From Burkholderiales bacterium (lineage in GTDB: Bacteria; Pseudomonadota; Gammaproteobacteria; Burkholderiales; Burkholderiaceae_C), in the NCBI GenBank assembly GCA_947462175.1, contig CANHOE010000001.1, positions 1 through 60,193 of the forward strand: a stretch of 60,193 nucleotides of DNA, given 5' to 3'. The notes below the pieces were generated by a model that had not been told where the DNA came from, did no database searches, and worked only from the letters and a program-made list of their open reading frames with translations. Shown here piece after piece: positions 6,001 to 24,619 of the stretch. A program made the translations under genes and the position numbers. Position 1 is the stretch's first letter. The number at the start of each line of letters is the position of its first letter.

Positions 6001-9000
6001 GCCGATGCTGGCAGCGTCAGCCTCTCAACGGTGGCGGGCGCGGTGACGGGCGCTACTGGCTCGACCGTCGATGTGTCGGCCAGCGCGCAGGGCGGCAACG
6101 CGGGCGCCTTCCAGGTGTCCGCTGCGCGACTGAATCTGGGTGGCCAGTTGCTCGCCAGCGCCGCTACCGGTGCCGATGGCGGCCGCGCGACGTTCGACCT
6201 GGGCTCCCTGAGCAACTTCTCGGCGCTGAACAGCGCGCTCGGCGCGGGCGGCTTCACTGAATCGATCGACCTGCGCTTGCTCAGCGGCGACCTGCAGGTC
6301 GCGAGCACCGATGTCGTGAAGGCGCGGGTGCTGCAGCTGGCGGCTGACAGCGGCCGCATCGACGTGGCCGGCACACTGGACGCCAGCAGTCTGCGCGGAT
6401 CGGGCAACGTGTCGGTGTGGGCCGCCAACGGCCTGGCACTGGCGGCGGGCAGCCGCGTGATCGCGACGGGCAAATCGACCGATGCCCGCAGCACTGCTGC
6501 GGCGTCCAATGGTGGGCACGTTCGGATGAGCACTGCCGCGGGCAGTCTCGACTTCGATGCGGCCTCCGTCATCGATGTGAGTCCGGGCGCGAAGGGCCGG
6601 ACCGGCGGCGTGACTTTTGGCGTCACGCGTGACGCGACCGGTCGCATCGGGGCGACGCAGCTTGCAGGGACGGTGCTGGGTCGCAGTGGTGGTCGTGGGG
6701 AGTCTGCCGCGGTCGTGCTCGAAGCGCAGCGCAGCTACAGCTCAGACGGCAATGTCGGCGCAGGCGACATCGCTGGATATGCGGCCGATCACTCCGCCTT
6801 CATCACAGCAGTCATTGCCAACGGCGACGCGGTCAACCGCTTCGCGGGCTTGAAAGCGGATGGCGGCGCACCCGCCCGAGCGAGTCTGCATGGCGCGACT
6901 GAGGTGCGCACCACCGGTGACATGAACCTGGCTGCAGGCTGGGACCTGACCAGCGGCGCGTGGCTGACAGATGGCCGTGTCGGCACGCTGACCCTGCGAG
7001 CCGGAGGCAACCTGACGTTGAAAAATTACATCGGTTCGCCCAACGACAACCTGATCGACGGCGACACGTGGAATCTGCGGCTCGCCGGAGGAGCCGACCT
7101 CGTGGCCGCGAACCCGCTGGCGACATTGGCGTCAGATGTCGGCGGCCTGGGCAGCGTGCTGCTGGCCGGCGATAACGCCAAACTGCGTACTGGAACCGGA
7201 TCCATCGAGGTCGCAGCGGCGACCGACTTCGTGATGGACTCCCCCGGCAGCGTGGTCTACACCGCTGGGCGCATCGGCGCCGCAGACACGGCCGTCAACG
7301 GCAACAACCGCTGGAGCCGGGACGGTGGCAGCATCTCGATCCGTGCCGGGCGCGATGCCACCGGGGCATCGAACGAATGGATCACCGAGTGGCTGCGCCG
7401 ACCACGCAGCTTCACCAGTGTGCCCGCCGAGTGGTGGGCTTATCGGCCGAATTTTCAGCAAGGTATCGGCACGCTGGGCGGTGGTGACATCCGCATTGAG
7501 GCTGGCCATGACGTGAACACGCTGTCGGCCATGCTGCCAACGACCGGCCGCAACAATGTCGATGGCAACGGCTTGCGCTCACTCGATGTGCAGGGCGGCG
7601 GCGATCTGAGCGTTCGCGCTGGTAACGATGTGATCGGTGGCAGCTACCTGATCGGTCGCGGCGATGGTCGCATCACTGCGGGCGGCAACGTCGGCGCCGC
7701 GGCACCCACGCAGTTGTTTCTCATGGGCGCCAGCAGTGGCGATGTGGCGACGCGTGCCGAAGTTTCGGTCGCCGCGGGCGGCTCGGTCGCACTGCAGAGC
7801 GTCAACAACCCGACGGCGCTGGTTCAACTGGCAGCGACGCCCGGACGCGGACCCAGCTTCGGTTCGGGAGCGAGCCGTGCGGTGACCTTCTTCACTTACT
7901 CGCCCGACAGCGCGGTCAACCTGTCAGCGCAGTCTGGTGATGTGTCAATCGGCAGTCAGATGGCCAATGGGCGGCGCATGGGCAGCAACGCGACGTTGAC
8001 CGACGGCACCACTGCCGGCGCGTTCCCGGCAACGATCAATGCTGCGGCACTCGAAGGCGATGTGTCGCTGGGGAGTCGCAGGATCGTGACCTTCCCCTCG
8101 CTGTCGGCCCAGGTGGCATTGCTGGCAGGCAGGTCGGTGCTGGACCCAAACCTGACGGTGTCGGACGTGTCGGCGGTGGACGTGATCGATGCCTCACGTG
8201 GGGTGCTGGCGGCGCAGTCCTTTTCGGGTGACGACCTGCTGATTGGCACATCGCCACGCATCGTCGCCCGCGCGCCGACAACCGGCTTCCGGTTCGATCT
8301 GCAAGGCCTGACCGGCGACGTGGCCGGTGTGGGCAATGGCAGCATTCTTTCGCTGCCCGCGGCGAGTCGCGTGCGCGCCGGTCGCGATATCAAGAATCTG
8401 GCGCTGACCTTGCAAAATCTGGGTGCGGCCGACGTGTCGGAGGTGCGCGCTGAAACGGGTGATGTCTTGCCTCTCGGTCTGGAGATTCGCGGGCCGGGAA
8501 GTCTCCTCATTCAGGCCGGTCGAAACATTGACGTTGGCACGGCCGCGATCACCGCCGGTTCGTCAAACCTGGGCGGCATCATCGCCACGGGCAATAACGC
8601 CAACCCCAGTCTGCCCGACAGCGATGCCGCGAGGTTGACGCTGATCGCAGGGGTGAAGGGTGATGTCGACCTGACGAAGTTCAAGGCCGCCTACGACGAT
8701 CTGATCGCCATCAACGGCAGTTCGGATGCGATCTTGGCGTTCTACCGGACGCTCAATGGCGACACCAACCGCGAAGCGGTCGGCACCGCGGCCAGCGTGC
8801 AGGAATTGATTGCGCGTGACCCGCTGTATGCGCCTTATGCCGACCTGTTGACGCGCTACCCTGGGCTGCTGAAGGTGTATCAGGCGGCGGACCTCGCCCG
8901 TTCGCTGCCTCTGGGGGTTTCTGCGCAGGCCAGCCAGGCTGCCGCGCTGTACGCCTTGCTGAACCGCGAAACCGACACCGCAAAAATCGTTGGTGCCAAT

Positions 9001-10038
9001 GGCGTGGCCGATCTGCTGCAGGGCACGCTCGGCGGCAGCGCCTATGCCGGTTTCGCAGCACTCGACCAGGAGTACCCACGGGTCTTTGCCGACTACCGCG
9101 CGCGACGCAGCCGTGGCGCGCGGCCCGAGGGCCTGACGCCGATCGTTTTGTCGGACGCCCTGGGCGAGATCACCGCCAAGGCGGTCGCTACAGATGCGGT
9201 GGGCGCCGGCAACATCTACAGCTTCAGCAGTTCGATCCAGACCTATGGCAACGGCCGGTTGCCTGACAGCAGCTGCAAAGGACAATGTGAAGGGCAAGGG
9301 GACATCAATCTGTGGGTGCCGGGTGGCAACATCATCGCCGGCCTGACAACGCCGACGGCTGGCACCACGATCGGCATCGTGACCAATGGCGGGGGCGCGA
9401 TCCGCAGCGTGGTTGGCGGTGACTTCACGATCAATCAAGGCAAGGTGCTGACGACACAGGGCGGTGACATCTTGCTTTACAGCAGCGGTGGCAGCATCGA
9501 CGCCGGTCGTGGCGCGCGCACCTCGATCAGCACGCCCCCGCCAACCCGCACACCGATCACCGTTGATGGTGTGATCGTCGGCTACGTCTACACCGTGCCG
9601 GCCAGTTCATCGGGAAGTGGCATCCAGACGCTAACCTCCGATCCGGATGGCATTGGTCCGCGCACCGCGGTGCCGGCAGGCGGCATCTACCTGTTCGCGC
9701 CGGCCGGTGCCATTGACGCTGGCGAAGCAGGTATTCGCTCCGGTGGCAGCCTGTTCATCAATGCGCAGACGGTGCTCAATGCCAGCAACTTCTCAGCTGC
9801 AGGCCCGTCAACGGGCGTGCCGGTAGCCACAGCCGGCAGTCTGGCCACTTCGCTCGCCGGTAGTGGCACAGCCAATAACTCGAAAGCAGCCGAGGATGCT
9901 GCGGCCAGCGCGACCAGTGCGGCCCGTGCCGCGGCAGCCGCTGAAGGACTGCAGAAGCCGACCATCCTGACCGTCGAGGTGCTGGGCTTTGGCGACAAGA
10001 ATTGCAAGGAACAGGACAAGGGCTGCCTCGCCAAATGA
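1..10038 (+). CDS. Filamentous hemagglutinin (FhaB/TpsA)-family giant exoprotein, 5'-truncated by the window edge
   Basis: Frame +1 is open from base 1, with no stop before the TTG at 61, so the true start is upstream. The product is >3325 aa, rich in Gly/Ala/Ser/Thr/Asn/Val, with degenerate beta-helix-type repeats (..GNVTL.., ..GGxLxL.., ..AGRDI..). The first ~150 aa resemble the distal part of a TPS/haemagglutination-activity domain (LISSPDGQVILAAGGKAYL). The C-terminus has an Ala-rich stretch and a Cys-containing tail (GFGDKNCKEQDKGCLAK). The stop is TGA at 10036-10038. Confidence 0.85.
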   Translation, partial: TTGGLTSALAEGGYDDQGNTLAMRPDGTLPAGIGIGIGTSGPADAAPPTITAKAGGSIIIFAPRVDNRAGLISSPDGQVILAAGGKAYLALAEAADPTLRGFRVEVEASHGVDVNLSDLVRNSGIVTADRGNVTLAALAINQNGRVSANTAIQANGSVYLKARTLGGAQAGTASFGTGSVTQVRPDTKDKSTLPESQNYASVLDDRRGEIRVDAKTIASNGTLQAPGGRITLTAREAVDAADPTAARVYLDGDSVTSVAGNWVDVPFADNLLTFKVTSNELRDAPNQKRGFLQGQTVTVDLRKGSPLLNLEGYRAAQARTVAQKTAVGGELDVSSAGSLIQRSGAVIDASGGGYRYGAGTASTSVLLGADGRTYSITTASEPRSYTGLLDSYTKTYSRWGQTQVFSGLAFGIGQAEAGYVEGKAGGTIRLQSAAGLVLDGQLAGGATVGPNQLARAPRAASLSIGAFDSTDNDFDPAQRIGNVTFTQTVTPVLASGFDVASALTTTQINNISLAAGQLFGRSSAGARNVYAQTAFDSVEINANGRISVPEGVHIDGAPGSSLLLRSPQIDVAGAISMPAGNITLQPIATLEPLAPALGIGNNSVTVRSTALLSTTGVWINNASVDGSFVGEPLPTASLNVAADGTTSTTSTLNGGRLTIANNADRTSATVLERGAVLDVGGGAALGRAGRLIAGDGGTLTIANAYLGALSSDWLQADLWGLSPGNGGRLVLSTARAVLDPADANGTLPSNTTRLLPSLFADRGFASITVNTVQGIAIDTGANITLQQKNRVVDPFAAAALATGGDLREVSSVQVLPDAVRKPVNLTLAASGFRDIQTQATLTMAAGSTLSADPKATVSLSAVDGLSVNGRISAPGGNVNLTLNAPDIGASGNLSLGADAVISVAGTFVRSPTDNGLVQGSVIGGGTVTIAAAQTGVALATGSQIDVSGITQTVQSLATSGDGVLAKAVDGNAGTLIVRSQGEMKLDATLRASRGSERGAGGSFALEQKARDSELTPPTERRIVVSQQATAMPAPVDPSFVDARVSVDALQQAGFDKLRLQSEDRIELIGNVDLNFARGVRLDAPLINVTGDGQISVRGASVAIGQSLDPRSLAGSGPYTRISQGLSPVLATRAGAGQLSVRAGTIDLFGSFAINGVSQSRFFSDGDIRFTGRNVRPNTASGDRSIGAQIGSLTTRGNLFLSATQIYPSTRNDYTLSVVDQPGATPVAAGSITIASNGKPAGDVYSAGGRLALVADTIVQGGTVKAPLGEIDLRAGSRLELSPGSVTSVSAKGLTLPFGTTLAGISWRYLDSTAGGTPNPLTTASADAKRVELAGASIDVRSGATVDVSGGGEVQASEFVPGIGGTNDTLIQPNTYAIIPKSMLSSLPVDTDIAARQDIGFGFQSAARDTSVYDRLYIGRGAAVPEGEYVLLPGRYALLPDAYLVQLQTGSAYANLQPGQTTQLANGQTVVAGYRTVGGTSIRESATVGVLVRPGSAATRESDYRLTTSSYFTDLAASSRAAAPRIPIDAGRLVFRNAQSLDLSGSFLTAPGSRTSSTGVAGRVAEVDISADRIAVVDHIGDIPGIDASFLQLEGHALSALGGSLLLGGQRSLVGDALQISTGASQIVVANSAAGEVKVPELLLAASDSVEVRSGGVLTASSNVPASGATTLTTEAGGALLRLSSGAQATVDRGALVDNTRGEIRIADGATLTAGRSLLLDATLTTRSQGRFAVGQGGDVSLASSQVSLGETAGVSSIDTGLVLSNADLAGFAGLDALRIKGYLGIDLIGNAMVGAASLGKLTLDAGALRGQAVSPSAQSTVAAREVRLLNSGTQAVAYAGASAGALSIDAERIVIGAGNQKIGGFDAVAMNASREIVAQGRGALDVAADWTVRTPKVGVSAGALQRWAAVDRRDPANPVYSSLALNSSAGPAGTSTDTAAGGRLSIDAARVSVATKLQARAGSITVVAHGAGPDDGVTLSNGAKLDASGVAKGFRGRAVTADAGSVSLSTVAGAVTGATGSTVDVSASAQGGNAGAFQVSAARLNLGGQLLASAATGADGGRATFDLGSLSNFSALNSALGAGGFTESIDLRLLSGDLQVASTDVVKARVLQLAADSGRIDVAGTLDASSLRGSGNVSVWAANGLALAAGSRVIATGKSTDARSTAAASNGGHVRMSTAAGSLDFDAASVIDVSPGAKGRTGGVTFGVTRDATGRIGATQLAGTVLGRSGGRGESAAVVLEAQRSYSSDGNVGAGDIAGYAADHSAFITAVIANGDAVNRFAGLKADGGAPARASLHGATEVRTTGDMNLAAGWDLTSGAWLTDGRVGTLTLRAGGNLTLKNYIGSPNDNLIDGDTWNLRLAGGADLVAANPLATLASDVGGLGSVLLAGDNAKLRTGTGSIEVAAATDFVMDSPGSVVYTAGRIGAADTAVNGNNRWSRDGGSISIRAGRDATGASNEWITEWLRRPRSFTSVPAEWWAYRPNFQQGIGTLGGGDIRIEAGHDVNTLSAMLPTTGRNNVDGNGLRSLDVQGGGDLSVRAGNDVIGGSYLIGRGDGRITAGGNVGAAAPTQLFLMGASSGDVATRAEVSVAAGGSVALQSVNNPTALVQLAATPGRGPSFGSGASRAVTFFTYSPDSAVNLSAQSGDVSIGSQMANGRRMGSNATLTDGTTAGAFPATINAAALEGDVSLGSRRIVTFPSLSAQVALLAGRSVLDPNLTVSDVSAVDVIDASRGVLAAQSFSGDDLLIGTSPRIVARAPTTGFRFDLQGLTGDVAGVGNGSILSLPAASRVRAGRDIKNLALTLQNLGAADVSEVRAETGDVLPLGLEIRGPGSLLIQAGRNIDVGTAAITAGSSNLGGIIATGNNANPSLPDSDAARLTLIAGVKGDVDLTKFKAAYDDLIAINGSSDAILAFYRTLNGDTNREAVGTAASVQELIARDPLYAPYADLLTRYPGLLKVYQAADLARSLPLGVSAQASQAAALYALLNRETDTAKIVGANGVADLLQGTLGGSAYAGFAALDQEYPRVFADYRARRSRGARPEGLTPIVLSDALGEITAKAVATDAVGAGNIYSFSSSIQTYGNGRLPDSSCKGQCEGQGDINLWVPGGNIIAGLTTPTAGTTIGIVTNGGGAIRSVVGGDFTINQGKVLTTQGGDILLYSSGGSIDAGRGARTSISTPPPTRTPITVDGVIVGYVYTVPASSSGSGIQTLTSDPDGIGPRTAVPAGGIYLFAPAGAIDAGEAGIRSGGSLFINAQTVLNASNFSAAGPSTGVPVATAGSLATSLAGSGTANNSKAAEDAAASATSAARAAAAAEGLQKPTILTVEVLGFGDKNCKEQDKGCLAK

Positions 10039-10054
10039 GCTCGCGAATTTGCCG

Positions 10055-11263
10055 ATGCGTCTGTTGAACGTCATCCGTTCCGTCGATCCTGTGCATGGCG
10101 GCCCGGCGGAAGGGCTGCGGCAGTCGATCACCGCGACCCGCGCCATGGGCCACATCGAATCTGTGCTGACGTTGGATGCACCTGGCGATGCCTGTGTGAC
10201 CGCCTTTCCAGCAACGGTGCACGCACTCGGGCCGGCGGGCTCGAACTATGGGCGCGGAGATCGGCTGCTGCCCTGGTTGCGCGACCATGCTGGCGATTAC
10301 GACGCGGTGGTGGTGCATGGCCTTTGGCAGCACCATGGTCTGACGGTCTGGCGTGCGCTGCGCAACGGGCCGGTGCCGTATTTCGTCTATCCGCACGGCA
10401 TGCTCGACCCGTGGTTCAAGCAGCGCTATCCGTTGAAGCACTGGAAGAAGTCGCTCTACTGGTGGGCGGCCGAGTACAGAGTTCTGCGCGATGCTTCGGC
10501 TGTGCTTTTCACTGCAGACGAGGAGAGGCGACAGGCGGCACACACGTTCCGGCCGTATCGGGTGAGGCCCGCGGTTGTCGGGTACGGGGTGGCCGCCATC
10601 GGTGCCGATGCATCGGTCGATGCCCAGCTGTTCTTCGATCACTGGCCTGCGACCCGCGGCAAGCGCCTTGTGCTCTTCCTGGGCCGCCTTCACCCGAAGA
10701 AAGGTGGCGATCTGCTGATCGAGGCGTTCGCTCAGGTGGCTGCCCGCGATCCTTCGCTGCATCTGGTGATGGCAGGGCCCGACGACCGCTCGGGCGTGCG
10801 CTGCGAATGGGAGGCGCTGGCTTCGCGCTGCGGTATGTCAGATCGGGTCACGTTCACCGGCATGCTGACCGGCGACATCAAATGGGCTGCTCTGCGCGCT
10901 GCCAATGTGTTTGCGCTCCCATCGCATCAAGAGAATTTCGGCATTGCGGTGGTCGAGGCGCTCGCCTCAGGCTTGCCAGTGCTGATTTCCGACAAAGTCA
11001 ACATCTGGCGCGAGATCGTTGCCGATGATGCAGGGTTCGCAGGGAGCGACACAGTGGCTGGTACAGCGGAGACGCTTGACCGCTGGTTGAACCTCGAACC
11101 CTTGAGACTCACCGCCATGCGGCAGCACGCCCGCGATTGCTACCAGCGGCACTTCCACATGACGGCTACAGCGCAGCGATTGATCGACACGATCACGCCA
11201 CACCTGCGTCAGACCGCTGTCACACAGCACGCACCGGACACAAGACTCGATTCACAGCGCTGA
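10055..11263 (+). CDS. Glycosyltransferase, GT4 (GT-B, retaining) family
   Basis: ATG at 10055 is in frame with ORF 9989..11263 and lies 16 nt after the fhaB-like stop. It starts MRLLNVIRSVDPVHGGPAEG and carries the GT4 E-x7-E signature (SHQENFGIAVVEALASGLPVL). Confidence 0.8.
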   Translation: MRLLNVIRSVDPVHGGPAEGLRQSITATRAMGHIESVLTLDAPGDACVTAFPATVHALGPAGSNYGRGDRLLPWLRDHAGDYDAVVVHGLWQHHGLTVWRALRNGPVPYFVYPHGMLDPWFKQRYPLKHWKKSLYWWAAEYRVLRDASAVLFTADEERRQAAHTFRPYRVRPAVVGYGVAAIGADASVDAQLFFDHWPATRGKRLVLFLGRLHPKKGGDLLIEAFAQVAARDPSLHLVMAGPDDRSGVRCEWEALASRCGMSDRVTFTGMLTGDIKWAALRAANVFALPSHQENFGIAVVEALASGLPVLISDKVNIWREIVADDAGFAGSDTVAGTAETLDRWLNLEPLRLTAMRQHARDCYQRHFHMTATAQRLIDTITPHLRQTAVTQHAPDTRLDSQR

Positions 11264-11320: not shown

Positions 11321-13069
11321 ATGAAAAAAATCGCAATGCTGGTCGTCATGCTGACGGGCCTGTTGATGGTGGGGCTGTCCCATGCCGCCTGGAACGCCGA
11401 ATGGAAGCAGCGCGTCAAGATTGGGCTGAACACGGCTGCTGACGGCCTGGCCATCACCTCAGCGGTCGATTCGCCTGCAGTGCTGATCCGGCTCCACACG
11501 GGCAATTTTCAATTCGTCGAAGCCAAGCCCGATGGCACCGACCTGCGTTTAATCGCCAGCGACGACAAGACGCCGCTGAAATACCACATCGAGAAGTTCG
11601 ATGGTCTGAATGAACTCGCGTTCATCTGGGTGCAGGTACCTAAGCTTGAGCCGGGTTCCAAGGACGCCTTCATCTGGCTCTATTACGGCAACCCCGTTGC
11701 GGCCGCAGGTGACGATGTCAATGGCAGTTATGACGCCGCGCAAGGGCTGATCTATCACTTCAACGAGCGCGAGGCGCTGCCACAGGATTCCACTGCGAAC
11801 GCGAACCACGCTCTGAGCTCGACTGCCAAGGCCATTGGCGCCGGTCTGATTGGCGGCGCGCTCTCGTTCGATGGCACTGCCGAATTGGCGCTGCCGTCGA
11901 CGCCTTCGCTGAAGGCCGGGGCCAACGGGCTGACGCTGTCGTTCTGGATCAAGCCGGTCGACACGGCCGACGTACCGGTCTACACGCAGACTGATGGCGC
12001 CGCACCGCTGTCGATCACGATGCGTGGCGGAAAGCTGGAGGCGCAATCAGGCACGCTGACCACCACCGCATCGGCACCGCTCGTTGCCGGCGCCTGGCAG
12101 CACGTCGCCATCGTCGTGAAAGACGGGCTGACGATTTATCTGAATGGGCAGGAGGTCGCCAAAGCTGCTGGCGCTGTGTCTGACATGAGCGGTGGCGCTG
12201 TCGTTGGCAAGGGCTTCAAGGGCGAGATTGACGAACTGCAGGTGTCGACCACGGCGCGCTCCGCCGATTGGATCAAGACCGCTGCGCAATCACAGGGTCA
12301 GGATCAGAAGCTGGTGGTCTATGGCCCGGCCGAAGGCGATGGTGAGGGTGACAGTGGCCCCTCTTACCTGAAGATCCTGCTCGGCGCGGTGACGATCGAT
12401 GGATGGGTGGTCATCGCCATCCTGGGCGTGATGTTCGTCGTGAGCTTCTGGGTGATGATCACCAAGTCCATGTTCGTGAACAGGGCGGCCAAGGACAACG
12501 AACGTTTCAAGGCGCAGTTCGAGAAGCTCGTGAATTCCATCCACCCCGGCACGCAGGACCCCGCCGTGGAGAAGGCCGAGAAGGAAACGGCCAGAGCCTA
12601 CCGGTATTCCTCGCTTTACCGCCTGTATGCCGCCGGCGCCCACGAGTTGCAGAAACGCTTTTCTGTCTACGCGGAGGAGGGTCGCACTCCGACGCTCACC
12701 GATCCCTCGCTCAATGCGATCCGCGCGACCATTGATGCACGGCTCGTGCGCGAACTGCAGCGCCTCAACGCCCAGATGGTGGTGCTCACCATCTCGATCG
12801 CCGGCGGCCCCTTTCTGGGCCTGCTTGGCACGGTGGTGGGCGTGATGATCACTTTTGCGGCCATTGCCGCGGCCGGTGACGTGAATGTGAATGCCATCGC
12901 ACCGGGCATCGCCGCAGCGCTGGTGGCCACCGTGGCTGGCCTGGCTGTCGCCATCCCCTGTCTCTTTGGCTACAACTACCTGCAGAGCAAGATCTCCGAG
13001 CTGACCTCGGACATGCAGGTGTTCGTCGACGAGTTCATCACTCGCATCGCCGAGAACCACTCGGTCTGA
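11321..13069 (+). CDS. DUF2341 + LamG (concanavalin-like) periplasmic domains fused to a MotA/TolQ/ExbB proton-channel domain
   Basis: Starts at ATG 11321 with an N-terminal signal/anchor (MKKIAMLVVMLTGLLMVGLSHA). A DUF2341-like block follows (WKQRVKIGLN...DLRLIASDDKTPLKYHIEKFD...AFIWVQVP...IWLYYGN). Next is a LamG-like block (GGALSFDG..LTLSFWIKP..AWQHVAIV..IYLNGQ..FKGEIDELQVS). The C-terminal part has three TM segments and the ExbB signature region (GGPFLGLLGTVVGVMITF...APGIAAALVATVAGLAVAIP). Confidence 0.85.
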   Translation: MKKIAMLVVMLTGLLMVGLSHAAWNAEWKQRVKIGLNTAADGLAITSAVDSPAVLIRLHTGNFQFVEAKPDGTDLRLIASDDKTPLKYHIEKFDGLNELAFIWVQVPKLEPGSKDAFIWLYYGNPVAAAGDDVNGSYDAAQGLIYHFNEREALPQDSTANANHALSSTAKAIGAGLIGGALSFDGTAELALPSTPSLKAGANGLTLSFWIKPVDTADVPVYTQTDGAAPLSITMRGGKLEAQSGTLTTTASAPLVAGAWQHVAIVVKDGLTIYLNGQEVAKAAGAVSDMSGGAVVGKGFKGEIDELQVSTTARSADWIKTAAQSQGQDQKLVVYGPAEGDGEGDSGPSYLKILLGAVTIDGWVVIAILGVMFVVSFWVMITKSMFVNRAAKDNERFKAQFEKLVNSIHPGTQDPAVEKAEKETARAYRYSSLYRLYAAGAHELQKRFSVYAEEGRTPTLTDPSLNAIRATIDARLVRELQRLNAQMVVLTISIAGGPFLGLLGTVVGVMITFAAIAAAGDVNVNAIAPGIAAALVATVAGLAVAIPCLFGYNYLQSKISELTSDMQVFVDEFITRIAENHSV

Positions 13070-13079: not shown

Positions 13080-13484
13080 ATGAAGATGCAGGCCGCTGGC
13101 AAACCCTACGACGAGATCAATGTCGTGCCGATGCTCGACCTCAGCTACGTGCTGCTGGTGATCTTCATCATCATGACGACTGCTTCGGTTCAGGGCATCA
13201 AGGTCAATCTGCCGAAGGCCAGTGCCGCGCCGAGCCTGGCCAAGCCGCAGACCAAGGCCATCACCATTCGCGACGACGGTCAGATCTTCCTCGACACCTA
13301 CCCGGTGAGCATGCAGGAGCTGGAGGACCGCCTTCGTCAGCTGAAGGCGGTGAATCCCAGCTTTCCGGTGGTCATCAAGGGAGACGCAAAAGTTCACTAC
13401 GAAAAGGTCGTCGATGTACTCGACCTCATGGGGCGGCTCGACATTACCCAACTCGGCCTGGTCACCCAGCGCCTGGTGAAGTAG
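13080..13484 (+). CDS. exbD: ExbD/TolR-family biopolymer transport protein
   Basis: The product is 134 aa and starts 10 nt after the upstream stop. It has a single N-terminal TM (INVVPMLDLSYVLLVIFII) followed by a typical ExbD periplasmic domain (ITIRDDGQIFLD...VVIKGDAKVHYEKVVDVLDLM). Confidence 0.85.
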   Translation: MKMQAAGKPYDEINVVPMLDLSYVLLVIFIIMTTASVQGIKVNLPKASAAPSLAKPQTKAITIRDDGQIFLDTYPVSMQELEDRLRQLKAVNPSFPVVIKGDAKVHYEKVVDVLDLMGRLDITQLGLVTQRLVK

Positions 13485-13511: not shown

Positions 13512-14192
13512 ATGGACGTATACAACGACGATGCCGAGCCCCGCCGCTCCTGGCTCAAGACGGCCGCGCTCGTTTTGGTGGCGCTGGCCCTGCTGGCCGG
13601 CGCGACTCTGGTGTTGATGAAGTTCCTGTCGGGGCCATCAGCGAAGCCGTCCGGCATACGCCAGATCGCTTTGATCAAGCAGCCGCCGCCACCGCCGCCG
13701 CCCAAGCCCCCAGAGAAGCCGCCTGAGCCGCCCAAGGTGAAGGAGGAAGTCAAGATCGATCAGCCCAAGGACGAGCCCAAGCCCGACGAGCCGAAGGCGG
13801 CGGACGAGAAACCTGCATCGGACAAGCCGCTCGGTGTTGATGCAGAAGGCGGCGCCGGCTCCGACGGTTTCGGGCTGGCTGGCAACAAGGGTGGTCGGGA
13901 TTTCCTTACCTCCGGCGGTGGAGGTGGCGCGTACTACTCGGGCTTGCTGCAGCGGCAGTTCTTCGAAGCCTTGTCGCGCAACCGCAAGGTGCTGAAGGAA
14001 GAGTTCAAGGTGGTCGTCAAGATCTGGCTCGGCGATGACGGGCGAGTGCAGAAGGCCGACATCGTCAGTGGCTCCGGCAACCCCAAGGTCGATGACCTGA
14101 TCCAGTTGACTCTGCTCGACATGACCCCGCTCAAGGACATCCCGCCCAGCTCAATGCGCCCGATGCAACTCCGCCTGAGCAACCGCTCGTGA
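13512..14192 (+). CDS. TonB-like energy transducer
   Basis: The architecture is an N-terminal TM (AALVLVALALLAGATLVLM), a Pro/Lys/Glu-rich rod (PPPPPPPKPPEKPPEPPKVKEE..KDEPKPDEPK), a Gly-rich linker and a TonB_C-like end (FKVVVKIWLGDDGRVQKADIVSGSGNPKVDDLIQLTLLD). Confidence 0.7.
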   Translation: MDVYNDDAEPRRSWLKTAALVLVALALLAGATLVLMKFLSGPSAKPSGIRQIALIKQPPPPPPPKPPEKPPEPPKVKEEVKIDQPKDEPKPDEPKAADEKPASDKPLGVDAEGGAGSDGFGLAGNKGGRDFLTSGGGGGAYYSGLLQRQFFEALSRNRKVLKEEFKVVVKIWLGDDGRVQKADIVSGSGNPKVDDLIQLTLLDMTPLKDIPPSSMRPMQLRLSNRS

Positions 14193-14218
14193 CCGTCTAC
14201 CGCTGTTTCCGACTTCGC

Positions 14219-15787
14219 ATGAACTTCACCATATCTCGCTGGTCTGTCTCGCTCGCATCGCTGATATGGGCCACTGCGCCTGTGTGCGCCCAGGAAGTCG
14301 ACATCGACCAGGTGCGTGCCGCCACCGCCAAATTGATCGCTCAACTGGTCGACCAGGGTGTGCTGGCGCGCGACAAGGGTGAAGCGCTGATGAGCGATTT
14401 CGCCAAGCCAGCAGCAGCACCATCAGCTTCCGGCAATGCCGGCTCGGCTGTGGGCGGCGCCGCGACGGAAGCAGGTGCCAAGGGTGCGGCCGGCACGGTG
14501 CGCGTGCCGTATATCCCGGAGTTCGTGCGCAAGGAATTGAAAGACGAGATTCGCCTCGAACTGGCCGCACAGGCGTTCCGCGAAGGCTGGACCGGACCGG
14601 GCTCGGTGCCGGCCTGGGTGCGTGGCCTGGCCTGGGACGGCGACCTGCGTTTTCGCGTGCAACTCGACCGCTTTGGCAGTGCCAATGCGCCACAGATCAG
14701 CATCACCGACACCAACCGCACCCGCGCGCTCTCGCTGGCGAACACGGCTGAAGACCGCGAACGGTTTCGATTTCGTGCCCGCATCGGCCTGACTGCGAAG
14801 ATCGACGAGAACTGGTCGGGCGGTGTGCGGCTGACCACCGGCAGCGCGACCGATCCGCTGTCGTCGAACCAGACGCTGGGCACCTACAACAACCGGTACA
14901 CCGTGCTGATCGACCGGGCGTACATCCGCTACCGCCTGGGTGACTACAGCGCCGTGGCCGGGCGCATGGCCAACCCCTGGTTTGGCACCGACCTGATGTG
15001 GGCCAACGACCTGAGCTTCGACGGCGTGGCCCTGCAATGGACGCCGACGATCACTTCCGACATTCGAGGTTTCGCCACGCTGGCGGCCCTGCCGATCCAG
15101 GAAGTGGAGCTGGCCTCGGCCGACAAGTGGTTGTTCGGAGGCCAGATCGGCGCCACGCTCCTGCCATCGCCGCGGACCGTGGGTGCCAAGCTGGGCCTGG
15201 CCTATTTCCACTACGCCAGCCTGCGGGGCAAGATAAGCCCGGCTGGCTCGACGGTGAACGAGTTCACAGCGCCGGCGTTTGCCCAGAAGGGCAACACGTA
15301 CTACAACATCTCGTCCGATCCGACCCGGCCATTGCTCGGCCTGGCCGCGGACTACCAGCTGCTGAACCTGACCGGGCAGGCCGACCTTCCGTCGATCGCC
15401 GGCAAGCGGATCATCGTGACCGGCGACTACGTCCGTAACTTCGGCTTCGATCGGGCAGCAGTGAGCCAGCGCGTCGGTACCAACGTCGACCCGCAGGTCA
15501 GTGCCTACCACCTGCGGGTGGCATTTGGCGACGCAGAGATCAAGGCACTGCATGACTGGCAGGTGTTCGCGGCCTACAAGCGTGTCGAGCGCGATGCCCT
15601 GCTCGACGCGTTCACCGACAGCGATTTCCGCCTCGGCGGCACGGATGCGCGTGGCTACATCCTCAGCGGCAGCTACGGCCTGGGCAAGAACACCTCGGCG
15701 GCATTTCGCTACTTCAGCGGCGATTCGATTTCGGGCGCACCGTTGTCGATCGACGTGTTCCAGTTCGACCTGAACGTGAAGTTCTGA
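14219..15787 (+). CDS. Porin-like outer-membrane beta-barrel protein with a long N-terminal helical/low-complexity extension
   Basis: ATG at 14219 gives a signal peptide (MNFTISRWSVSLASLIWATAPVCA/QE). A GTG at 14189 overlaps the tonB-like stop as an alternative start. About 100 aa of helical plus Ala/Gly-rich linker precede an amphipathic beta-strand-rich region. The protein ends in the OMP-type terminal Phe (FDLNVKF). Confidence 0.6.
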   Translation: MNFTISRWSVSLASLIWATAPVCAQEVDIDQVRAATAKLIAQLVDQGVLARDKGEALMSDFAKPAAAPSASGNAGSAVGGAATEAGAKGAAGTVRVPYIPEFVRKELKDEIRLELAAQAFREGWTGPGSVPAWVRGLAWDGDLRFRVQLDRFGSANAPQISITDTNRTRALSLANTAEDRERFRFRARIGLTAKIDENWSGGVRLTTGSATDPLSSNQTLGTYNNRYTVLIDRAYIRYRLGDYSAVAGRMANPWFGTDLMWANDLSFDGVALQWTPTITSDIRGFATLAALPIQEVELASADKWLFGGQIGATLLPSPRTVGAKLGLAYFHYASLRGKISPAGSTVNEFTAPAFAQKGNTYYNISSDPTRPLLGLAADYQLLNLTGQADLPSIAGKRIIVTGDYVRNFGFDRAAVSQRVGTNVDPQVSAYHLRVAFGDAEIKALHDWQVFAAYKRVERDALLDAFTDSDFRLGGTDARGYILSGSYGLGKNTSAAFRYFSGDSISGAPLSIDVFQFDLNVKF

Positions 15788-15800: not shown

Positions 15801-16475
15801 ATGAACGTGACGCGCCCGATCCTGCTTGGCCTGCTGGCCTTGGTCCTGTCTGTCAGCGCGTCGGCGCAGACCGCCGACAAGGCGACCCGCCGCCTTCAAC
15901 TTCAGCTTCAGAACTTGCAGCAACAGCTGCAGGAGGCGCAGTCTGCCAAGGCCAAGGTCGAGGCCGACAAGGCCGAAGTCGACAAGAAGTTGCTCGAGCA
16001 GACCGAGCAGGTCACGAAGCTGACCGCTGATCTGCGCAAGGCAGGCGGCAACTTCAAGTCTTCGGAGGCCACGCGCGCGCAACTGGCAGCCAATGTCTCG
16101 GCGCTCGATAAACAGCTGGCCGATGAGAAGCGCAGCAGCGAGGAAGCGGCCGCCCTGAAGGCACGTGAACTGGTGGCCTACACCCGGCTGCGCGACGAGC
16201 AGCAGGCGACGCTCCAGCGCAAGCATGACGACCAGGTCACGCAGGTCACCGAGTGCACGTCGAAGAACACGAAGCTGATCCGCCTCAGCGGTGAGCTGCT
16301 CGATCGTTACCGCGGCAAAACGGTCAAGGACGTGCTGACGCAGCGTGAGCCGATGCTGGGGCTCGGCGACGTGCAGATGTTCAACCTCGTCCAGGAATAC
16401 CGCGACCGCGGCGATGCCGAGCGCTTCACCCCATCCACCCCGCCGGCGCCCGCCGCCCCTTCCGTCAACAGGTGA
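15801..16475 (+). CDS. Secreted coiled-coil protein, function unknown
   Basis: It has a signal peptide (MNVTRPILLGLLALVLSVSASA/QT) followed by about 150 aa of heptad-like Q/E/K/L-rich sequence (LQLQLQNLQQQLQEAQSAKAKVEADKAEVDKKLLEQTEQ). The tail is Pro-rich. Confidence 0.6.
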   Translation: MNVTRPILLGLLALVLSVSASAQTADKATRRLQLQLQNLQQQLQEAQSAKAKVEADKAEVDKKLLEQTEQVTKLTADLRKAGGNFKSSEATRAQLAANVSALDKQLADEKRSSEEAAALKARELVAYTRLRDEQQATLQRKHDDQVTQVTECTSKNTKLIRLSGELLDRYRGKTVKDVLTQREPMLGLGDVQMFNLVQEYRDRGDAERFTPSTPPAPAAPSVNR

Positions 16476-16486
16476 AACCAAACGAA

Positions 16487-17188
16487 ATGACTCCCTCGTG
16501 CGCACTGAAGTTCGTCCCGCGTTCGATCCCTCTCGGCGTGATCTCCGCGACGCTCAGCCTCAGCCTGCTCGCCTCCTGCTCCAGCCTGCCGTCGCTGCCG
16601 ATTCCGTTTGTCGATAACGCGCCAGCGGCGCCGATCGTCTCCGGTAGCGCCTCTGCGAAATGGGGTCAACAGGTGGACCTGTCCGGCGGTGTCGTTATCA
16701 CTGACCCGGCCTATGTGATCGGGCCTGAAGACGCGCTGGACATTTCGGTATGGAAAGACGAGACGTTGAAATCCGCGGCGCTGGTGCGCCCCGATGGGGG
16801 CATCTCGTTTCCGCTGGCGGGCGACTTCATCGTCGCCGGCAAGACCGCCTCGCAGGTGCGCGACGAGCTGGTCAAGCGCCTTGAGAAATTCATTCCCGAG
16901 CCTGTGGTCACGGTGTCGGTGGTGCGCGTGGCCAGTTACCGCATCTATGTGATCGGCCGTGTCAACAAGCCCGGCGATATCCAGACCGGCCGCAACATCG
17001 ATGTGTTGCAGGCACTCAGCATCGCCGGCGGCATGACACCGTTCGCGTCGGAAGATGACATCCGGATCATTCGCAAGGTCCAAGGCAAGACCGTATCAAT
17101 ACCGTTCGAGTATTCCCGCATCCGCAAAGGCGGGGACCTGTCGCAGAACATCACGCTGAAAAGCGGAGACGTGCTGCTGGTGCCGTGA
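16487..17188 (+). CDS. Polysaccharide export protein, Wza/Poly_export + SLBB type lipoprotein (PEP-CTERM locus type)
   Basis: It has a lipobox (LSLSLLASC) and a Poly_export-like core (YVIGPEDALDISVW...PDGGISFPLAGDFIVAGKT..QVRDEL). An SLBB-like end follows (YVIGRVNKPGDIQ...DVLQALSIAGG). An alternative GTG at 16472 overlaps the upstream stop (GTGA). Confidence 0.8.
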   Translation: MTPSCALKFVPRSIPLGVISATLSLSLLASCSSLPSLPIPFVDNAPAAPIVSGSASAKWGQQVDLSGGVVITDPAYVIGPEDALDISVWKDETLKSAALVRPDGGISFPLAGDFIVAGKTASQVRDELVKRLEKFIPEPVVTVSVVRVASYRIYVIGRVNKPGDIQTGRNIDVLQALSIAGGMTPFASEDDIRIIRKVQGKTVSIPFEYSRIRKGGDLSQNITLKSGDVLLVP

Positions 17189-18459
17189 ACGCTGGTGGCT
17201 GTGATCGAGTCCCTGAGGCGTCCCGTTGTGGCGTGCTGCTTTGCAGCGTGGTGCTCGCGTGGCTCGGCTCGCCGCTCCCGGCGCTTGCAGAGAGTTATTC
17301 GATCGAGAGCAGCTCCAACGTCAGCGTCGAAGCGAATGACAACCTCAACTTGCAACCCCATTCGGCGGGAACCGTGAAGACACTTGCCTTGTCGACCACC
17401 GTCGGCGCATCGCGCCGGGCCGAGAACTCGGCCACGCTGCTGGGCGCGACTGTGACTGCCCTGCAGCAGTGGGGTCGCGGAGGCAACGACCGCCTCGACG
17501 GCAGTGTCGGTCTGACTCAGTCGTTCAAAGACGCGTTGAACACCTTGACCGCGTCGGGGCGATACGCCCAGGACTTCAACAACACGGTGCAAAACGCCGA
17601 CGTGACGGTCAGCCCGGGCCAGCGTCGCACGACCAGCGTGTCGGTGGGCTGGGGCCGTGCCCTGACTGAGCGGCTCAGCGCCAACACCCAGGTGAGCACC
17701 TCGCAAACCAGCTACGGCCAGCAGAGCTCAGCCGCTGTTGCCAGCAGCAACAGTTTCCGCAACACGTCGGTGTCTGCCGGACTGTCGTATGCGGTCACCG
17801 AGATCGATACCGTGTCGGTGCAGACCAGCCATTCCGACTATCGCAGCGCTGCCGCTGACACCAGCTCGTCGACCAATGAGATCAGTGTCAGCGCATCCCG
17901 CGTGCTGGGCGAGCGCAGCAGCGCGTCGCTTCAATTGGGCGTCTATCAGACCGACAGCAACTCGCCGAGGATTCGTTTCGCCTGTCCGACAGCACCCGTG
18001 CTGTGCGCGATCGGTCTGGTGCCGCTGATCCAGATTCGCGACCAGGCCAAGACGTCCGGCACCGGCCTGAGCTACGGCGCGAGTTACCGCTATCAGCTCG
18101 GACAGACATCGTCGTTTTCGCTCTCCTTGGGCAGCCAACAGTCCCCCAGTGGTGCGGAGGGCGTGGTGCAGAACAAGTCGCTGAGTTTGAGCCTGGGTCA
18201 CAGCTTTTCCGAAACGCTCAATGGGGCGATGAGCTTTGCCATGTCTCGATCCACGTCTCAGGTCACTGTGTTGAACCAGCGGTCGCAACGCAAGACGGTG
18301 GCCCTGTCGCTGTCCAAGCAGCTGTCGCGAGATTTCAGTCTGCAATCGAACTACCAATGGACCGAAGGCAACAGCGGCGGCGGTGGTGATGCAGCACAGT
18401 CGAACAGCATCGGCGTGGCGCTGAAGTACGACTGGCCCACCTTCCAGGCCTCGCGTTGA
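17185..18459 (+). CDS. Putative outer-membrane beta-barrel protein of the kind linked to PEP-CTERM/EPS loci
   Basis: The GTG start overlaps the wza-like stop (GTGA). It has a signal-like N-terminus ending PLPALA/ES. The rest is Ser/Thr/Asn/Gln-rich with alternating-hydrophobic strand patterns throughout (SVSAGLSYAVTE, LSLSLGHSFSE, ALSLSKQLSRDFSLQSNYQW). Confidence 0.5.
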   Translation: MNAGGCDRVPEASRCGVLLCSVVLAWLGSPLPALAESYSIESSSNVSVEANDNLNLQPHSAGTVKTLALSTTVGASRRAENSATLLGATVTALQQWGRGGNDRLDGSVGLTQSFKDALNTLTASGRYAQDFNNTVQNADVTVSPGQRRTTSVSVGWGRALTERLSANTQVSTSQTSYGQQSSAAVASSNSFRNTSVSAGLSYAVTEIDTVSVQTSHSDYRSAAADTSSSTNEISVSASRVLGERSSASLQLGVYQTDSNSPRIRFACPTAPVLCAIGLVPLIQIRDQAKTSGTGLSYGASYRYQLGQTSSFSLSLGSQQSPSGAEGVVQNKSLSLSLGHSFSETLNGAMSFAMSRSTSQVTVLNQRSQRKTVALSLSKQLSRDFSLQSNYQWTEGNSGGGGDAAQSNSIGVALKYDWPTFQASR

Positions 18460-18467
18460 GGAACACC

Positions 18468-20264: not shown

Positions 20265-21166
20265 AGGTGCCGATGAAATTCCCGAATGAAGTCACCCCCG
20301 ATGCGAGCGAGTCCGGTGCGGTCTACGGCGCCAAGGTGCAGGTGGTCAAGGCGCTGTCCGCCGCGACCGAGACGGAGCCGCGCAGCGAGTCGCTGCACAT
20401 TGAGTATTCGACGACACAGGTCATGGCCGATGCGCTGGTGCGGCTCCAACGCACGCATGGCGTCGTCAAACTGGACCGCTCGGTGCTGTCTGAGTCGTTC
20501 AAGATGCTGCGCAATCAGGTGCTGCAGCGCCTGCGTGCCGATGGCCACAAGCTGTTGGCAGTCACGAGCCCCAGGCGAATCGAGGGCAAGTCGCTGACCG
20601 CCGTCAACCTGGCGCTGACCATCGCTGCCGACTACGACTCGGCGGTGCTGCTGGTCGATGCCGATCTAGGCGGCGGCGGCCTTCAATCGATGTTCGGCCT
20701 CGACGGTGCGCGTGGTTTGAGCGACCACCTGATGCATGCGGCACCGATCTCCGAACTGCTGGTCAACCCCGGTCTCGCGCGCTTCGTGTTGTTGCCAGCC
20801 GGGCAGCAGGCCGTGCTGAATTCGGCCGAGCTGTTGGCAACCAAGCTGGCGCAGCAGTTGATCTCAGAGATGAAGCACCGCTACGCTGATCGCTACATCA
20901 TTGTTGACCTGCCACCGCTGCTCGACACCGCCGATGCGCTGGCGTTCCTTCCACAGGTCGACACCACGCTGGTGGTGGTGGAGGAGCACACCACCTCGAT
21001 TCAGGACATCGAGCGCATGGCCGAGCTGCTGGCGCCGTTCAACCTGATAGGCACCGTCATGAGCCAGGCGCGGCAGACCGAGAAGGGCGTTCGGTCAGGT
21101 ACCGACAAGGCACGCAAGGCGCCGTGGTACCGGCGAGTGATTTCGGGTGCTCGATCGGGCTACTGA
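20261..21166 (+). CDS. BY-kinase-like P-loop ATPase (EPS/PEP-CTERM locus tyrosine-autokinase family)
   Basis: An ATGA overlap joins it to the upstream gene. It carries Walker A (SPRRIEGKS), Walker A' (VLLVDADLGGGG) and Walker B (YIIVDLPPLL). Confidence 0.8.
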   Translation: MKVPMKFPNEVTPDASESGAVYGAKVQVVKALSAATETEPRSESLHIEYSTTQVMADALVRLQRTHGVVKLDRSVLSESFKMLRNQVLQRLRADGHKLLAVTSPRRIEGKSLTAVNLALTIAADYDSAVLLVDADLGGGGLQSMFGLDGARGLSDHLMHAAPISELLVNPGLARFVLLPAGQQAVLNSAELLATKLAQQLISEMKHRYADRYIIVDLPPLLDTADALAFLPQVDTTLVVVEEHTTSIQDIERMAELLAPFNLIGTVMSQARQTEKGVRSGTDKARKAPWYRRVISGARSGY

Positions 21167-21323
21167 GGCGGCAACCTTTCCGCATCAGACTGGCGGGGTG
21201 CAGGGGAGGCCGGCTCGTTCGGATCATCGATCCGCACGAAGCTGAGCGTGAGCTTGTCATGGCATGGGTTCACAGTAAGGGCACCACACCCGTTACCTTG
21301 TCCTCACTCTCAGGAGCCGTGCC

Positions 21324-21902: not shown

Positions 21903-21936
21903 GCAACCGCTCAGCAGTGTTTCTTTCGAGGTTCCC

Positions 21937-22140
21937 ATGACCCACATTGAAGAGTTCTCGTTGATCGCCGAACAACTGACCTGGCTGGAACAGCACGTGC
22001 GTGCGCAGTCGGCCGAACCTGCAGAGAGCGATCGCGTGGATGAGGCGCTGAAGGCATTGGTCTGTGCCCGCGCCGTCATCGAACAGCTGGCGAAAATCGG
22101 TGCCTTGATCGATTCGCCGACCGCGGTTTCCCCAGCCTGA
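21937..22140 (+). CDS. Hypothetical small acidic helical protein (67 aa)
   Basis: GAGG lies 6 nt upstream of ATG 21937. The sequence looks helical (MTHIEEFSLIAEQLTWLEQHVRAQ...). No family was recognised, so coding status is uncertain. Confidence 0.35.
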   Translation: MTHIEEFSLIAEQLTWLEQHVRAQSAEPAESDRVDEALKALVCARAVIEQLAKIGALIDSPTAVSPA

Positions 22141-22154
22141 CAGCGAACGCCACA

Positions 22155-22188
22155 ACTCGCTGCGCAGTGGGATCTCCGCGCGGCGAGT
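22155..22188. terminator. GC-rich hairpin between convergent genes (candidate bidirectional terminator)
   Basis: ACTCGCTGCGC (22155-22165) pairs with GCGCGGCGAGT (22178-22188). That gives 11 bp including one G-U, with a 12-nt loop. There is no U-tract. Confidence 0.4.
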
Positions 22189-22199
22189 CGTTGGTCAAA

Positions 22200-24596: not shown

Positions 24597-24619
24597 GTTC
24601 TGCTGTCCAATAAGGGAGC

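Follow-up and report, generated by a model that had tools for sequence, protein, structure and literature searches.

We analysed a 60,193-nucleotide stretch of DNA from a Burkholderiales bacterium (assembly GCA_947462175.1, contig CANHOE010000001.1, positions 1 to 60,193; this whole stretch is referred to as the window), in which an uninterrupted open reading frame (ORF) encodes a 582-residue protein that joins a DUF2341 domain and a LamG domain to a channel of the TolQ/ExbB type. This protein is the A subunit, of the TolQ/ExbB type, of a motor powered by the proton-motive force (PMF), and it is an environmental representative of a family that is known and annotated and whose function is uncharacterised, that of ExbB2 (PA0693) of Pseudomonas aeruginosa. 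The window sequence was found only in DNA metagenome runs, from lake water, and no RNA runs containing it were found. The fusion and the genes that accompany it, all on the + strand, are as follows.

1..10038, +, giant TpsA-like (filamentous-haemagglutinin family) protein of at least 3345 residues; the frame is open from base 1 and the 5' end lies beyond the window
9958..9996, +, C-terminal strand-like motif of the giant, PTILTVEVLGFGD, from an alignment of 51 giant C-termini
9989..11263, +, family 4 glycosyltransferase (GT4); Pfam Glycos_transf_1, NCBIfam HpsP-like, E = 1.4e-48
11321..13069, +, DUF2341 + LamG + TolQ/ExbB fusion, 582 residues, uninterrupted ORF with an ATG start
11321..11386, +, predicted Sec signal peptide of the fusion, residues 1–22, MKKIAMLVVMLTGLLMVGLSHA with AW following the cut, from hydropathy and charge
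11531..11773, +, DUF2341, residues 71–151; Pfam E = 6.2e-15, 55.9 bits (cut-off 23.4)
11870..12277, +, Laminin_G_3 / concanavalin A (ConA)-like jelly roll, residues 184–319; Pfam E = 2.4e-15, 57.4 bits (cut-off 27.6)
12398..13018, +, TolQ-like channel module: first transmembrane helix (TM1), cytoplasmic helical loop, TM2 and TM3, from Pfam and hydropathy
13080..13484, +, ExbD/TolR-type B subunit, 134 residues; Pfam ExbD, E = 1.4e-28
13512..14192, +, TonB/TolA-like transducer, 226 residues; Pfam TonB_2 (PF13103), 23.0 bits (cut-off 22)
14189..15787, +, Porin_5 (PF16930) outer-membrane barrel; Pfam E = 3.8e-150
15801..16475, +, secreted coiled-coil protein, 224 residues, counterpart of PA0697; no Pfam family

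Domains, topology and fold of the fusion protein

The order of parts first read from the sequence, DUF2341 followed by LamG and then the stator, is borne out: the three Pfam domains lie in that order and score far above their cut-offs (MotA_ExbB, PF01618, covers residues 462–566 with E = 6e-28 and 97.6 bits against a cut-off of 22.9). The LamG domain is present, but the length of about 190 residues given to it is not matched by Pfam, which covers about 135 residues, though Foldseek aligns 215–230 columns. The gene has a G+C content at third codon positions (GC3) of 0.79, similar to that of the flanking genes. The fusion is a single gene, because the homologues of three sets keep its domains and length. 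The 120 best homologues (65–100% identity) have the same domains and a similar length, one of them lacking only a recorded Laminin_G_3 match; relatives at 38–52% identity have the same domain architecture, as does a third set from Pseudomonas, Achromobacter and Bordetella, and the architecture is kept in thousands of homologues. Two separate genes, or a frameshift between them, are excluded by this conservation of architecture and length.

The initial annotation opened the protein with a signal or anchor. There is a signal, but the sequence looks like a cleavable Sec signal peptide and not like an anchor: the hydrophobic stretch (residues 4–22) is preceded by KK and ends in SHA immediately before AW, n-, h- and c-regions are all present, and the junction AxA/(A)WWNxDW (the slash marks the putative cut) is kept across the fusion family in the alignment of relatives. 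Hydropathy places TM1 at about residues 360–383, TM2 at about 492–516 and TM3 at about 526–550, an assignment with which the helices of the AlphaFold2 model and its superposition on TolQ agree. The loop between TM1 and TM2 (residues 384–490) is rich in Lys and Arg, with 17 such residues. The N-out topology of TolQ and ExbB is predicted for the fusion, and the signal peptide, the positive-inside rule and this topology together predict that residues 23 to about 350 are periplasmic, the location originally proposed for the head.

The assignment of the channel to the ExbB/TolQ/MotA family with three transmembrane helices stands and can be refined, TolQ rather than ExbB being the nearer relative of the channel part. 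The best NCBIfam match is TolQ (E = 1.6e-35, versus 1.9e-16 for ExbB), although both fall below the equivalog cut-offs (TolQ TIGR02796, 122.8 bits against 221; ExbB TIGR02797, 60.5 against 206.2, and TIGR02805, 65.2 against 135.35). In phmmer searches the last 238 residues align along the whole of Escherichia coli TolQ (E = 1e-17), whereas ExbB chains from the PDB match TM2–TM3 only (E = 2.7e-11). Foldseek superposes the fusion model on the TolQ chains of PDB entries 9ddm, 9kq0 and 8vlw (E. coli and A. baumannii) with TM-scores of 0.72–0.78. Residues Thr145, Thr178 and Pro187 of E. coli TolQ align to Thr504, Thr537 and Pro546 of the fusion, which are invariant in the 36-sequence alignment A2 (38–51% identity). 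The likeness to the TolQ of E. coli and A. baumannii (TolQ5R2; PDB entries 8odt, 9ddm and 8vlw) thus covers the alignment over the whole length of TolQ, the conserved Thr145, Thr178 and Pro187 positions and a partner ExbD/TolR with a transmembrane Asp. The differences are that TolQ has no periplasmic head of about 340 residues and that the fusion cassette, in contrast to Tol-Pal, has no TolA, TolB, Pal or CpoB neighbours.

Modelled alone (residues 23–350, 56-sequence alignment), the head is predicted by AlphaFold2 to be one compact all-β unit (pLDDT 91.8, pTM 0.89). In the full-length model the LamG and helical parts are resolved and the DUF2341 part is poor (pLDDT 30–50); the Laminin_G_3 region has a pLDDT of 80–98 in both models. 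Foldseek matches the modelled head to lectin-type jelly rolls with E values of about 1e-8 to 1e-9 over the 215–230 columns mentioned above, the nearest solved structures being the HcN domain of clostridial neurotoxins, the arabinan-binding domain 4 of the GH43 enzyme AbnA and the lectin domain of a trans-sialidase. The model therefore has a lectin/ConA-like fold, as was first suspected. Foldseek found no solved structure that spans both domains of the head; its matches are confined to the jelly-roll part.

Within DUF2341, Arg76, Asp81, Leu86, Trp103, Val104 and Pro107 are invariant in the alignment of relatives at 38–51% identity, and the head residues invariant across four phyla are R57, L58, R76, D81, L86, W103, V104, P107, N124, D156, W209, W259 and D304. 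That so many head residues are invariant at this level of identity argues for a specific, conserved interaction. The linker between the head and TM1 is short and acidic/Gly in composition.

The same unit occurs in a second setting. A search of 1.84 billion representative proteins with the head alone gave 17,727 matches at E < 1e-3. Among the best 150 of these, 56 proteins carry the head at residues ∼20–380 and are mostly of about 570–650 residues, i.e. stator fusions (the shorter ones are probably fragments), and the other 94 are giants of 887–7,867 residues with 2–24 matched stretches each. Six giants that we examined (within P0121–P0268) consist of tandem DUF2341+LamG units, with 2–4 of each domain and little else, sometimes FG-GAP. 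The head unit is thus also the repeat unit of huge surface proteins that form an uncharacterised class, and its presence in two settings suggests a generic extracytoplasmic module that was captured once by one stator lineage. These tandem-module giants are a different class of protein from the giant encoded in the window. The idea that the latter is itself built of DUF2341+LamG, with the head as a copy of a cargo repeat, was rejected, as Pfam finds only DUF3739 in it.

A conserved cassette and its Pseudomonas aeruginosa counterpart

Relatives were sought in one genome per GTDB species and the fusion was found to be encoded in at least 585 species-level genomes. Neighbourhoods were counted in the 80 best of these relatives, which come from four phyla, using 10-kb flanks; the neighbours in the window were compared with the 80 loci by tblastn and all ORFs of the loci were then clustered. 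The best 80 belong to the Betaproteobacteria (Burkholderiales, Rhodocyclales and Nitrosomonadales), the Gammaproteobacteria (Methylococcales, Lysobacter and Steroidobacter) and the Alphaproteobacteria (Bradyrhizobium, Methylosinus and Rhodoblastus), and also include Verrucomicrobia and Anaeromyxobacter. The view that this is an unusual way to build a stator is not upheld. Besides being widespread, the fusion proteins are named by NCBI ('DUF2341 domain-containing protein'), DUF2341 and DUF3450 are listed as N-terminal appendages of non-flagellar stators, of a function called unknown, in a 2025 survey of stator evolution (PMC12505986), and the fusion corresponds to ExbB2.

Directly downstream of the fusion there is an ExbD gene in 79 of the 80 loci. 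Porin_5 is present in 68, a divergent TonB-like gene in at least 57 and the coiled-coil protein in at least 39 by tblastn (48 by clustering), the last being followed by a PpiC-type peptidyl-prolyl isomerase in 16. On the upstream side and on the same strand, a homologous giant directly precedes the fusion in 53 loci (the flank cuts the giants at ∼3,200 residues); a ShlB/FhaC-type TpsB of about 580 residues (POTRA_2 + ShlB) is directly upstream in 27, and TpsA and/or TpsB hold this position, same strand, in at least 73. Two of the loci without either have less than 1 kb of upstream sequence. The fusion is the sole MotA_ExbB gene of the cassette, both in the window and at the related loci. In its conserved form the cassette consists of a giant TpsA with a two-partner secretion (TPS) domain and DUF3739, with or without TpsB, followed by the fusion, one or two ExbD, the TonB-like protein, Porin_5, the coiled-coil protein and sometimes PpiC. 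Two tandem ExbD genes follow the fusion in about one-sixth of the loci (L009, L013, L015, L025, L027, L043, L052, L057, L065, L070, L071, L074 and L083); the window has one.

The giant of the window has a DUF3739 match (PF12545) at residues 3134–3255 of the listed ORF (E = 2.5e-27) and is 50% identical over 3366 residues to a 3528-residue protein of Burkholderiales bacterium PBB1 (locus L081), which carries both PF05860 (TPS) and PF12545. Outside the DUF3739 match, 15–60 residues from the C-terminus, most of the 51 aligned giant C-termini have a motif with the consensus [ILF]-[TS]-V-[EQD]-[VLI]-[LI]-G-[FY]-G-[DNE], across classes; it reads KPTILTVEVLGFGDK in the window, PSVITVQVLGFGN in PdtA of P. 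aeruginosa and STISVEILGYGD in Klebsiella, and the Aquabacterium protein has it too. From its sequence the motif is a candidate docking motif that could make a strand-pairing contact. A Cys pair often comes after it (NCKEQDKGC in the window).

The ExbD protein has its transmembrane Asp within VVPMLDLSYV. The TonB-like protein has the expected layout of an N-terminal transmembrane anchor, a Pro-rich spacer and a small C-terminal domain, the last scoring 21.1 bits against TIGR01352, below the cut-off of 27.1; across its cluster only the spacer and the C-terminal domain are conserved and no anchor residue is. Porin_5 probably starts at the ATG at 14219. Its periplasmic N-terminal extension, seen in the window and in 67 related loci, consists of an NLIxxLVxQGVL helix, a variable low-complexity linker and a VRVPY(V/I)PExV(K/R) strand (VRVPYIPEFV in the window), which is a further candidate, on sequence grounds, for a strand-pairing contact. 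No TpsB, YbjN or PpiC gene was seen within the window. Its TpsB presumably lies upstream of the giant gene and outside the window, by analogy with Aquabacterium. Likewise, no vreAIR-like genes were found within the window, and the region 5' of the giant gene lies outside it.

The GT4 gene overlaps the stop of the giant gene by 50 nucleotides. It is found at the same spot in L001 and L003–L006 and is absent from the PBB1 locus; it is clade-specific and outside the core cassette. GT4 could glycosylate the giant, which is possibly relevant to a lectin-like head.

The cassette occurs with different surroundings elsewhere. In PBB1 the fusion is 85% identical to that of the window and the cassette is followed by queuosine genes. 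On the Klebsiella quasipneumoniae plasmid pKqq_SB98_1 (locus L082), the RefSeq annotation has a TonB-dependent-receptor-like gene, an extracytoplasmic-function (ECF) sigma factor and a DUF4880 anti-sigma factor ahead of the cassette, then a filamentous haemagglutinin (4,121 residues), ShlB/FhaC, MotA/TolQ/ExbB (612 residues), ExbD, TonB, a putative porin, a hypothetical protein, YbjN and a peptidylprolyl isomerase. This block, with its vreAIR-like genes, lies at 114742–152463 on a conjugative IncFIB plasmid, near IS26/IS3 elements and an ars operon. Since the whole block is carried on a conjugative plasmid, the cassette is horizontally mobile. Aquabacterium olei pTB101 has, in order, a POTRA protein, a filamentous haemagglutinin, a DUF2341 protein, two ExbD, TonB, a putative porin and a hypothetical protein.

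The counterpart in P. aeruginosa (P0400; 615 residues, with 904 member sequences) has the same three Pfam domains, DUF2341, Laminin_G_3 and MotA_ExbB, in the same order and is 37% identical to the fusion over the full length (E = 5e-109). Upstream of it are a 4,180-residue TPS+DUF3739 protein, a DUF772 protein and a 544-residue ShlB protein, and downstream are ExbD, TonB_2, Porin_5, a 220-residue protein, YbjN, a rotamase, a 141-residue protein and LysR and AraC regulators. This gene order is that published for PA0690–PA0701a; the map of PA0674–PA0701 runs from vreA-vreI-vreR to pdtA, phdA, pdtB, exbB2, exbD2 and tonB4, and continues with PA0696 ('putative outer membrane porin'), PA0697, PA0698 (YbjN) and PA0699 (PpiC) (PMC2729926; PMC7035377). 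The neighbours correspond as well: the Porin_5 protein of the window is 36% identical to PA0696 (E = 3e-96), the TonB-like protein 33% identical to TonB4 (E = 2e-6), the coiled-coil protein 26% identical to the 220-residue protein (E = 1e-8) and the giant 25–33% identical to PdtA, including the C-terminal region (best segment E = 9e-29). Judged from these comparisons, the fusion is the structural equivalent of ExbB2 and is likely to be its orthologue. The two loci differ in that GT4 is inserted upstream of the fusion in the window and not in the ExbB2 cluster, and in that exopolysaccharide (EPS) export genes follow the coiled-coil gene in the window, where P. aeruginosa has YbjN and PpiC.

Genes PA0690–PA0699 are co-induced by sigma-VreI/PhoB under phosphate starvation, with a log2 fold change of about 4–5 per gene (PMC7035377; PMC2729926). 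Llamas et al. noted that homologues of the TPS genes, exbBD and PA0696 travel together in other genera, with tpsB, exbBD and the PA0696 homologue together and several tpsA genes elsewhere in R. palustris and Janthinobacterium (PMC2729926). The P. aeruginosa exbB2 system has been called functionally uncharacterised (PMC7035377). We found no publication on the ExbB2 head and none testing the function of exbB2 or tonB4, and our literature search returned nothing relevant on an ExbB–LamG fusion, Porin_5 (PF16930) or DUF3739.

What the motor and its head may act on

The motor is neither a general Ton nor a general Tol system. A canonical TonB system has a plug-containing TonB-dependent transporter as its outer-membrane partner; in the cassette there is no plug or TonB_dep_Rec match, and the co-conserved barrel is Porin_5. 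The earlier proposal that proton flow through the stator is coupled to nascent EPS or to peptidoglycan, and directly so rather than only through TonB, fares poorly on both counts: EPS genes occur in only about 8 of the 80 loci and the conserved neighbour is a giant two-partner-secretion protein, while a TonB-like gene is itself a conserved member of the cassette. The initial annotation thus probably names the wrong partner.

On balance we think that the motor is dedicated to a PdtA-type TPS module and that the head is its periplasmic docking element. Cleavage of the signal peptide would leave a lectin-like DUF2341+LamG head of about 330 residues in the periplasm, joined to TM1 by the short acidic/Gly linker. 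Five fusion subunits would surround an ExbD dimer, a stoichiometry proposed on the model of the solved TolQ5R2 and ExbB5D2 complexes, and the five heads would form a crown encircling the place where ExbD and the TonB-like arm emerge. Proton flow through this A5B2 complex would drive the arm, which would act on the Porin_5 barrel and/or on the C-terminus of the giant exoprotein, retained in the periplasm, and the motor would in this way power or gate a step in the secretion, anchoring or release of the giant, with the head as the docking element specific to the system. We infer a physical link among the head, the TonB arm, Porin_5 and TpsA. Ligands of the head could be the retained C-terminus of the giant, a glycan on the giant, Porin_5 or the coiled-coil protein; the glycan is among these candidates because a GT4 gene lies between the giant and the fusion in the clade of the window.

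Several points weigh against this assignment. No experiment linking the motor to the TPS pair was found, and in zebrafish the strains mutated singly in PA0690, PA0692, PA0695 or PA0696 matched the wild type in virulence under vreI overexpression (PMC2729926). Secretion by other TPS systems has been reconstituted without external energy (PMC5422565). Three of the loci (L026, L043 and L051) show no clear TpsA or TpsB despite having enough upstream sequence. The nearest structural neighbours of the head bind carbohydrate or receptors and not unfolded protein. No SxxxH motif or His is conserved in the TonB-like anchors (59 sequences from 56 loci), and the anchor in the window, WLKTAALVLVALALLAGATLVLMKF, is without His; as SxxxH is absent, coupling to the stator may differ from that of TonB and TolA. 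Finally, no conserved TonB-box-like motif precedes the POTRA domain at the TpsB N-termini, and a TonB box at this position was accordingly rejected.

Two known systems provide partial analogies. TtpC of the Vibrio TonB2 systems is a protein of the MotA/TolQ/ExbB family with a large N-terminal periplasmic extension that acts, in a specialised Ton system, together with the periplasmic coiled-coil protein TtpB/DUF3450 (PMC6957404). The likeness to the fusion is that of a stator-family protein with a periplasmic head and a coiled-coil partner. TtpC, however, accompanies a separate, ordinary ExbB2 and its systems serve TonB-dependent iron transporters, whereas the cassette of the fusion has no other stator A subunit. 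In Myxococcus, the TolQR-type motor AglRQS works with Glt/Nfs, in which TonB-like proteins and barrels that are not TonB-dependent transporters move surface structures, including the spore-coat polysaccharide. We use this as a working analogy only. AglR has no lectin head, and the TonB-like protein of the window has a weak match to GltJ (E = 6.5e-4), in the proline-rich N-terminal residues 10–103 and far below the family cut-off.

A stronger form of the TPS assignment, which we regard as doubtful, would make PdtA-type TPS energy-dependent: the heads of the motor and the TonB-like arm would engage the ILTVEVLGFG-type strand of the giant and Porin_5, and the motor would pull, hold or release the passenger of 3,500–4,200 residues. 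In some freshwater Burkholderiales this would take place from the same operon as EPS export, so as to make one floc or biofilm matrix.

Nutrient capture of the HxuABC type is rather unlikely. Here the secreted giant TpsA would capture or liberate a substrate outside the cell (a phosphate-related one in P. aeruginosa), Porin_5 would be a TonB-gated uptake channel energized by the motor and the head would bind the incoming substrate or a periplasmic carrier. The P. aeruginosa cluster lies in the PhoB/sigma-VreI phosphate-starvation regulon and adjoins the Hxc/LapA phosphatase secretion genes (PMC2729926; PMC7035377), which would suit such a role, as would the periplasmic N-terminal extension of Porin_5 with its strand-like motif and a faint similarity of Porin_5 to the phosphate-selective porin O/P (E = 0.0021, below the cut-off). 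There is also a precedent in Haemophilus HxuA/HxuB/HxuC, in which a TPS pair is genetically coupled to an outer-membrane protein energized by TonB (PMC5422565). HxuC, however, belongs to the classical TonB-dependent transporters and relies on the housekeeping TonB system, and Hxu has no dedicated stator or lectin head, while Porin_5 has no plug domain or recognized TonB box, in that no such Pfam domain was found. Nutrient capture would also leave unexplained why tpsB adjoins the motor where the tpsA genes are dispersed, and why the cassette includes a PpiC-type chaperone.

Less likely again is a head with no cargo ligand, acting as a crown with a structural or regulatory role, which scaffolds the stator or auto-inhibits it, replaces the plug or peptidoglycan-anchoring roles of MotB/TolR or senses a periplasmic condition. 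Non-flagellar stators have repeatedly gained diverse N-terminal appendages (PMC12505986). The DUF2341+LamG unit is a generic extracytoplasmic module that is repeated in giant surface proteins, and the short linker would keep the heads beside the exit of ExbD. Against a crown of this kind stand the head residues that are invariant across four phyla, which argue for a specific interaction. Nor, to our knowledge, are LamG folds peptidoglycan binders.

The remaining explanation concerns the EPS genes, which with the other features of the window are listed here.

16472..21166, +, EPS export genes: Wza-like, PEP-CTERM-associated outer-membrane protein, XrtA-type chain-length determinant and tyrosine kinase (TIGR03027, TIGR03016, TIGR03007 and TIGR03018)
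16472-26224, PEP-CTERM/exosortase EPS locus that follows the cassette
22200-24596, -, PrsT tetratricopeptide-repeat (TPR) protein
24620-26224, -, XrtD (VPLPA-CTERM) exosortase with a fused EpsI domain
27691-30162, -, large coding-looking ORF, 823 residues, no NCBIfam family at E <= 1e-5
36195-37772, +, large coding-looking ORF, 525 residues, no NCBIfam family at E <= 1e-5
43977-45110, -, large coding-looking ORF, 377 residues, no NCBIfam family at E <= 1e-5
45121-46851, -, large coding-looking ORF, 576 residues, no NCBIfam family at E <= 1e-5
48807-51074, -, 755-residue protein with an FxDxF-type PEP-CTERM sorting signal and a β-strand repeat, likely to be an exosortase substrate

The four unassigned ORFs (823, 525, 377 and 576 residues) lie inside the EPS region. 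In the window the EPS export genes follow the cassette directly and on its strand, with ORF ends that overlap or nearly do so (16475 is the last position of the coiled-coil gene and 16472 the first of the Wza-like ORF), and this order is repeated in L002 and L004, two relatives at 68–70% identity. EPS export genes are found within 10 kb in about 8 of the 80 loci, from several lineages including a few gammaproteobacterial metagenome-assembled genomes. This is probably more often than by chance and may reflect a shared 'matrix' island. L081 and L083 have PEP-CTERM proteins close to the cassette. About 72 of the 80 loci, however, lack EPS export genes in their 10-kb flanks, and such genes are absent from L081, L082 and L084; they are contiguous with the cassette in the window and are not a conserved partner of it. 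As the head is equally conserved in loci without EPS genes, its ligand should be one common to all. It is thus very unlikely that the lectin head grips nascent EPS or peptidoglycan and that the stator drives EPS export through the Wza/PCP/tyrosine-kinase (PEP-CTERM/XrtD) machinery: the structural neighbours of the head do include true carbohydrate-binding modules (AbnA domain 4 and the trans-sialidase lectin domain), but the 85%-identical orthologue in PBB1 is followed by queuosine genes rather than EPS genes and the P. aeruginosa and Klebsiella cassettes are without EPS genes.

Implications for two-partner secretion

For annotation, the ExbB, ExbD and TonB genes of the window should be assigned neither to EPS/PEP-CTERM export nor to a Ton system for iron uptake. 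Two unknown families also gain a concrete context, DUF2341 as part of the head and Porin_5 as the outer-membrane partner.

The prevailing view is that type V and two-partner secretion need no external energy (PMC5422565), and yet in at least 73 of the 80 loci a complete proton-motor cassette accompanies one TpsA/TpsB subfamily. P. aeruginosa is among the at least 585 species-level genomes that encode such a fusion. If the motor and the secretion system cooperate, the drive or control of the export and release of β-helical proteins of several thousand residues becomes testable in a tractable organism. Should the energy-dependent form prove true, the motor of the PdtA system would be the first PMF-coupled type Vb secretion or retention machine.

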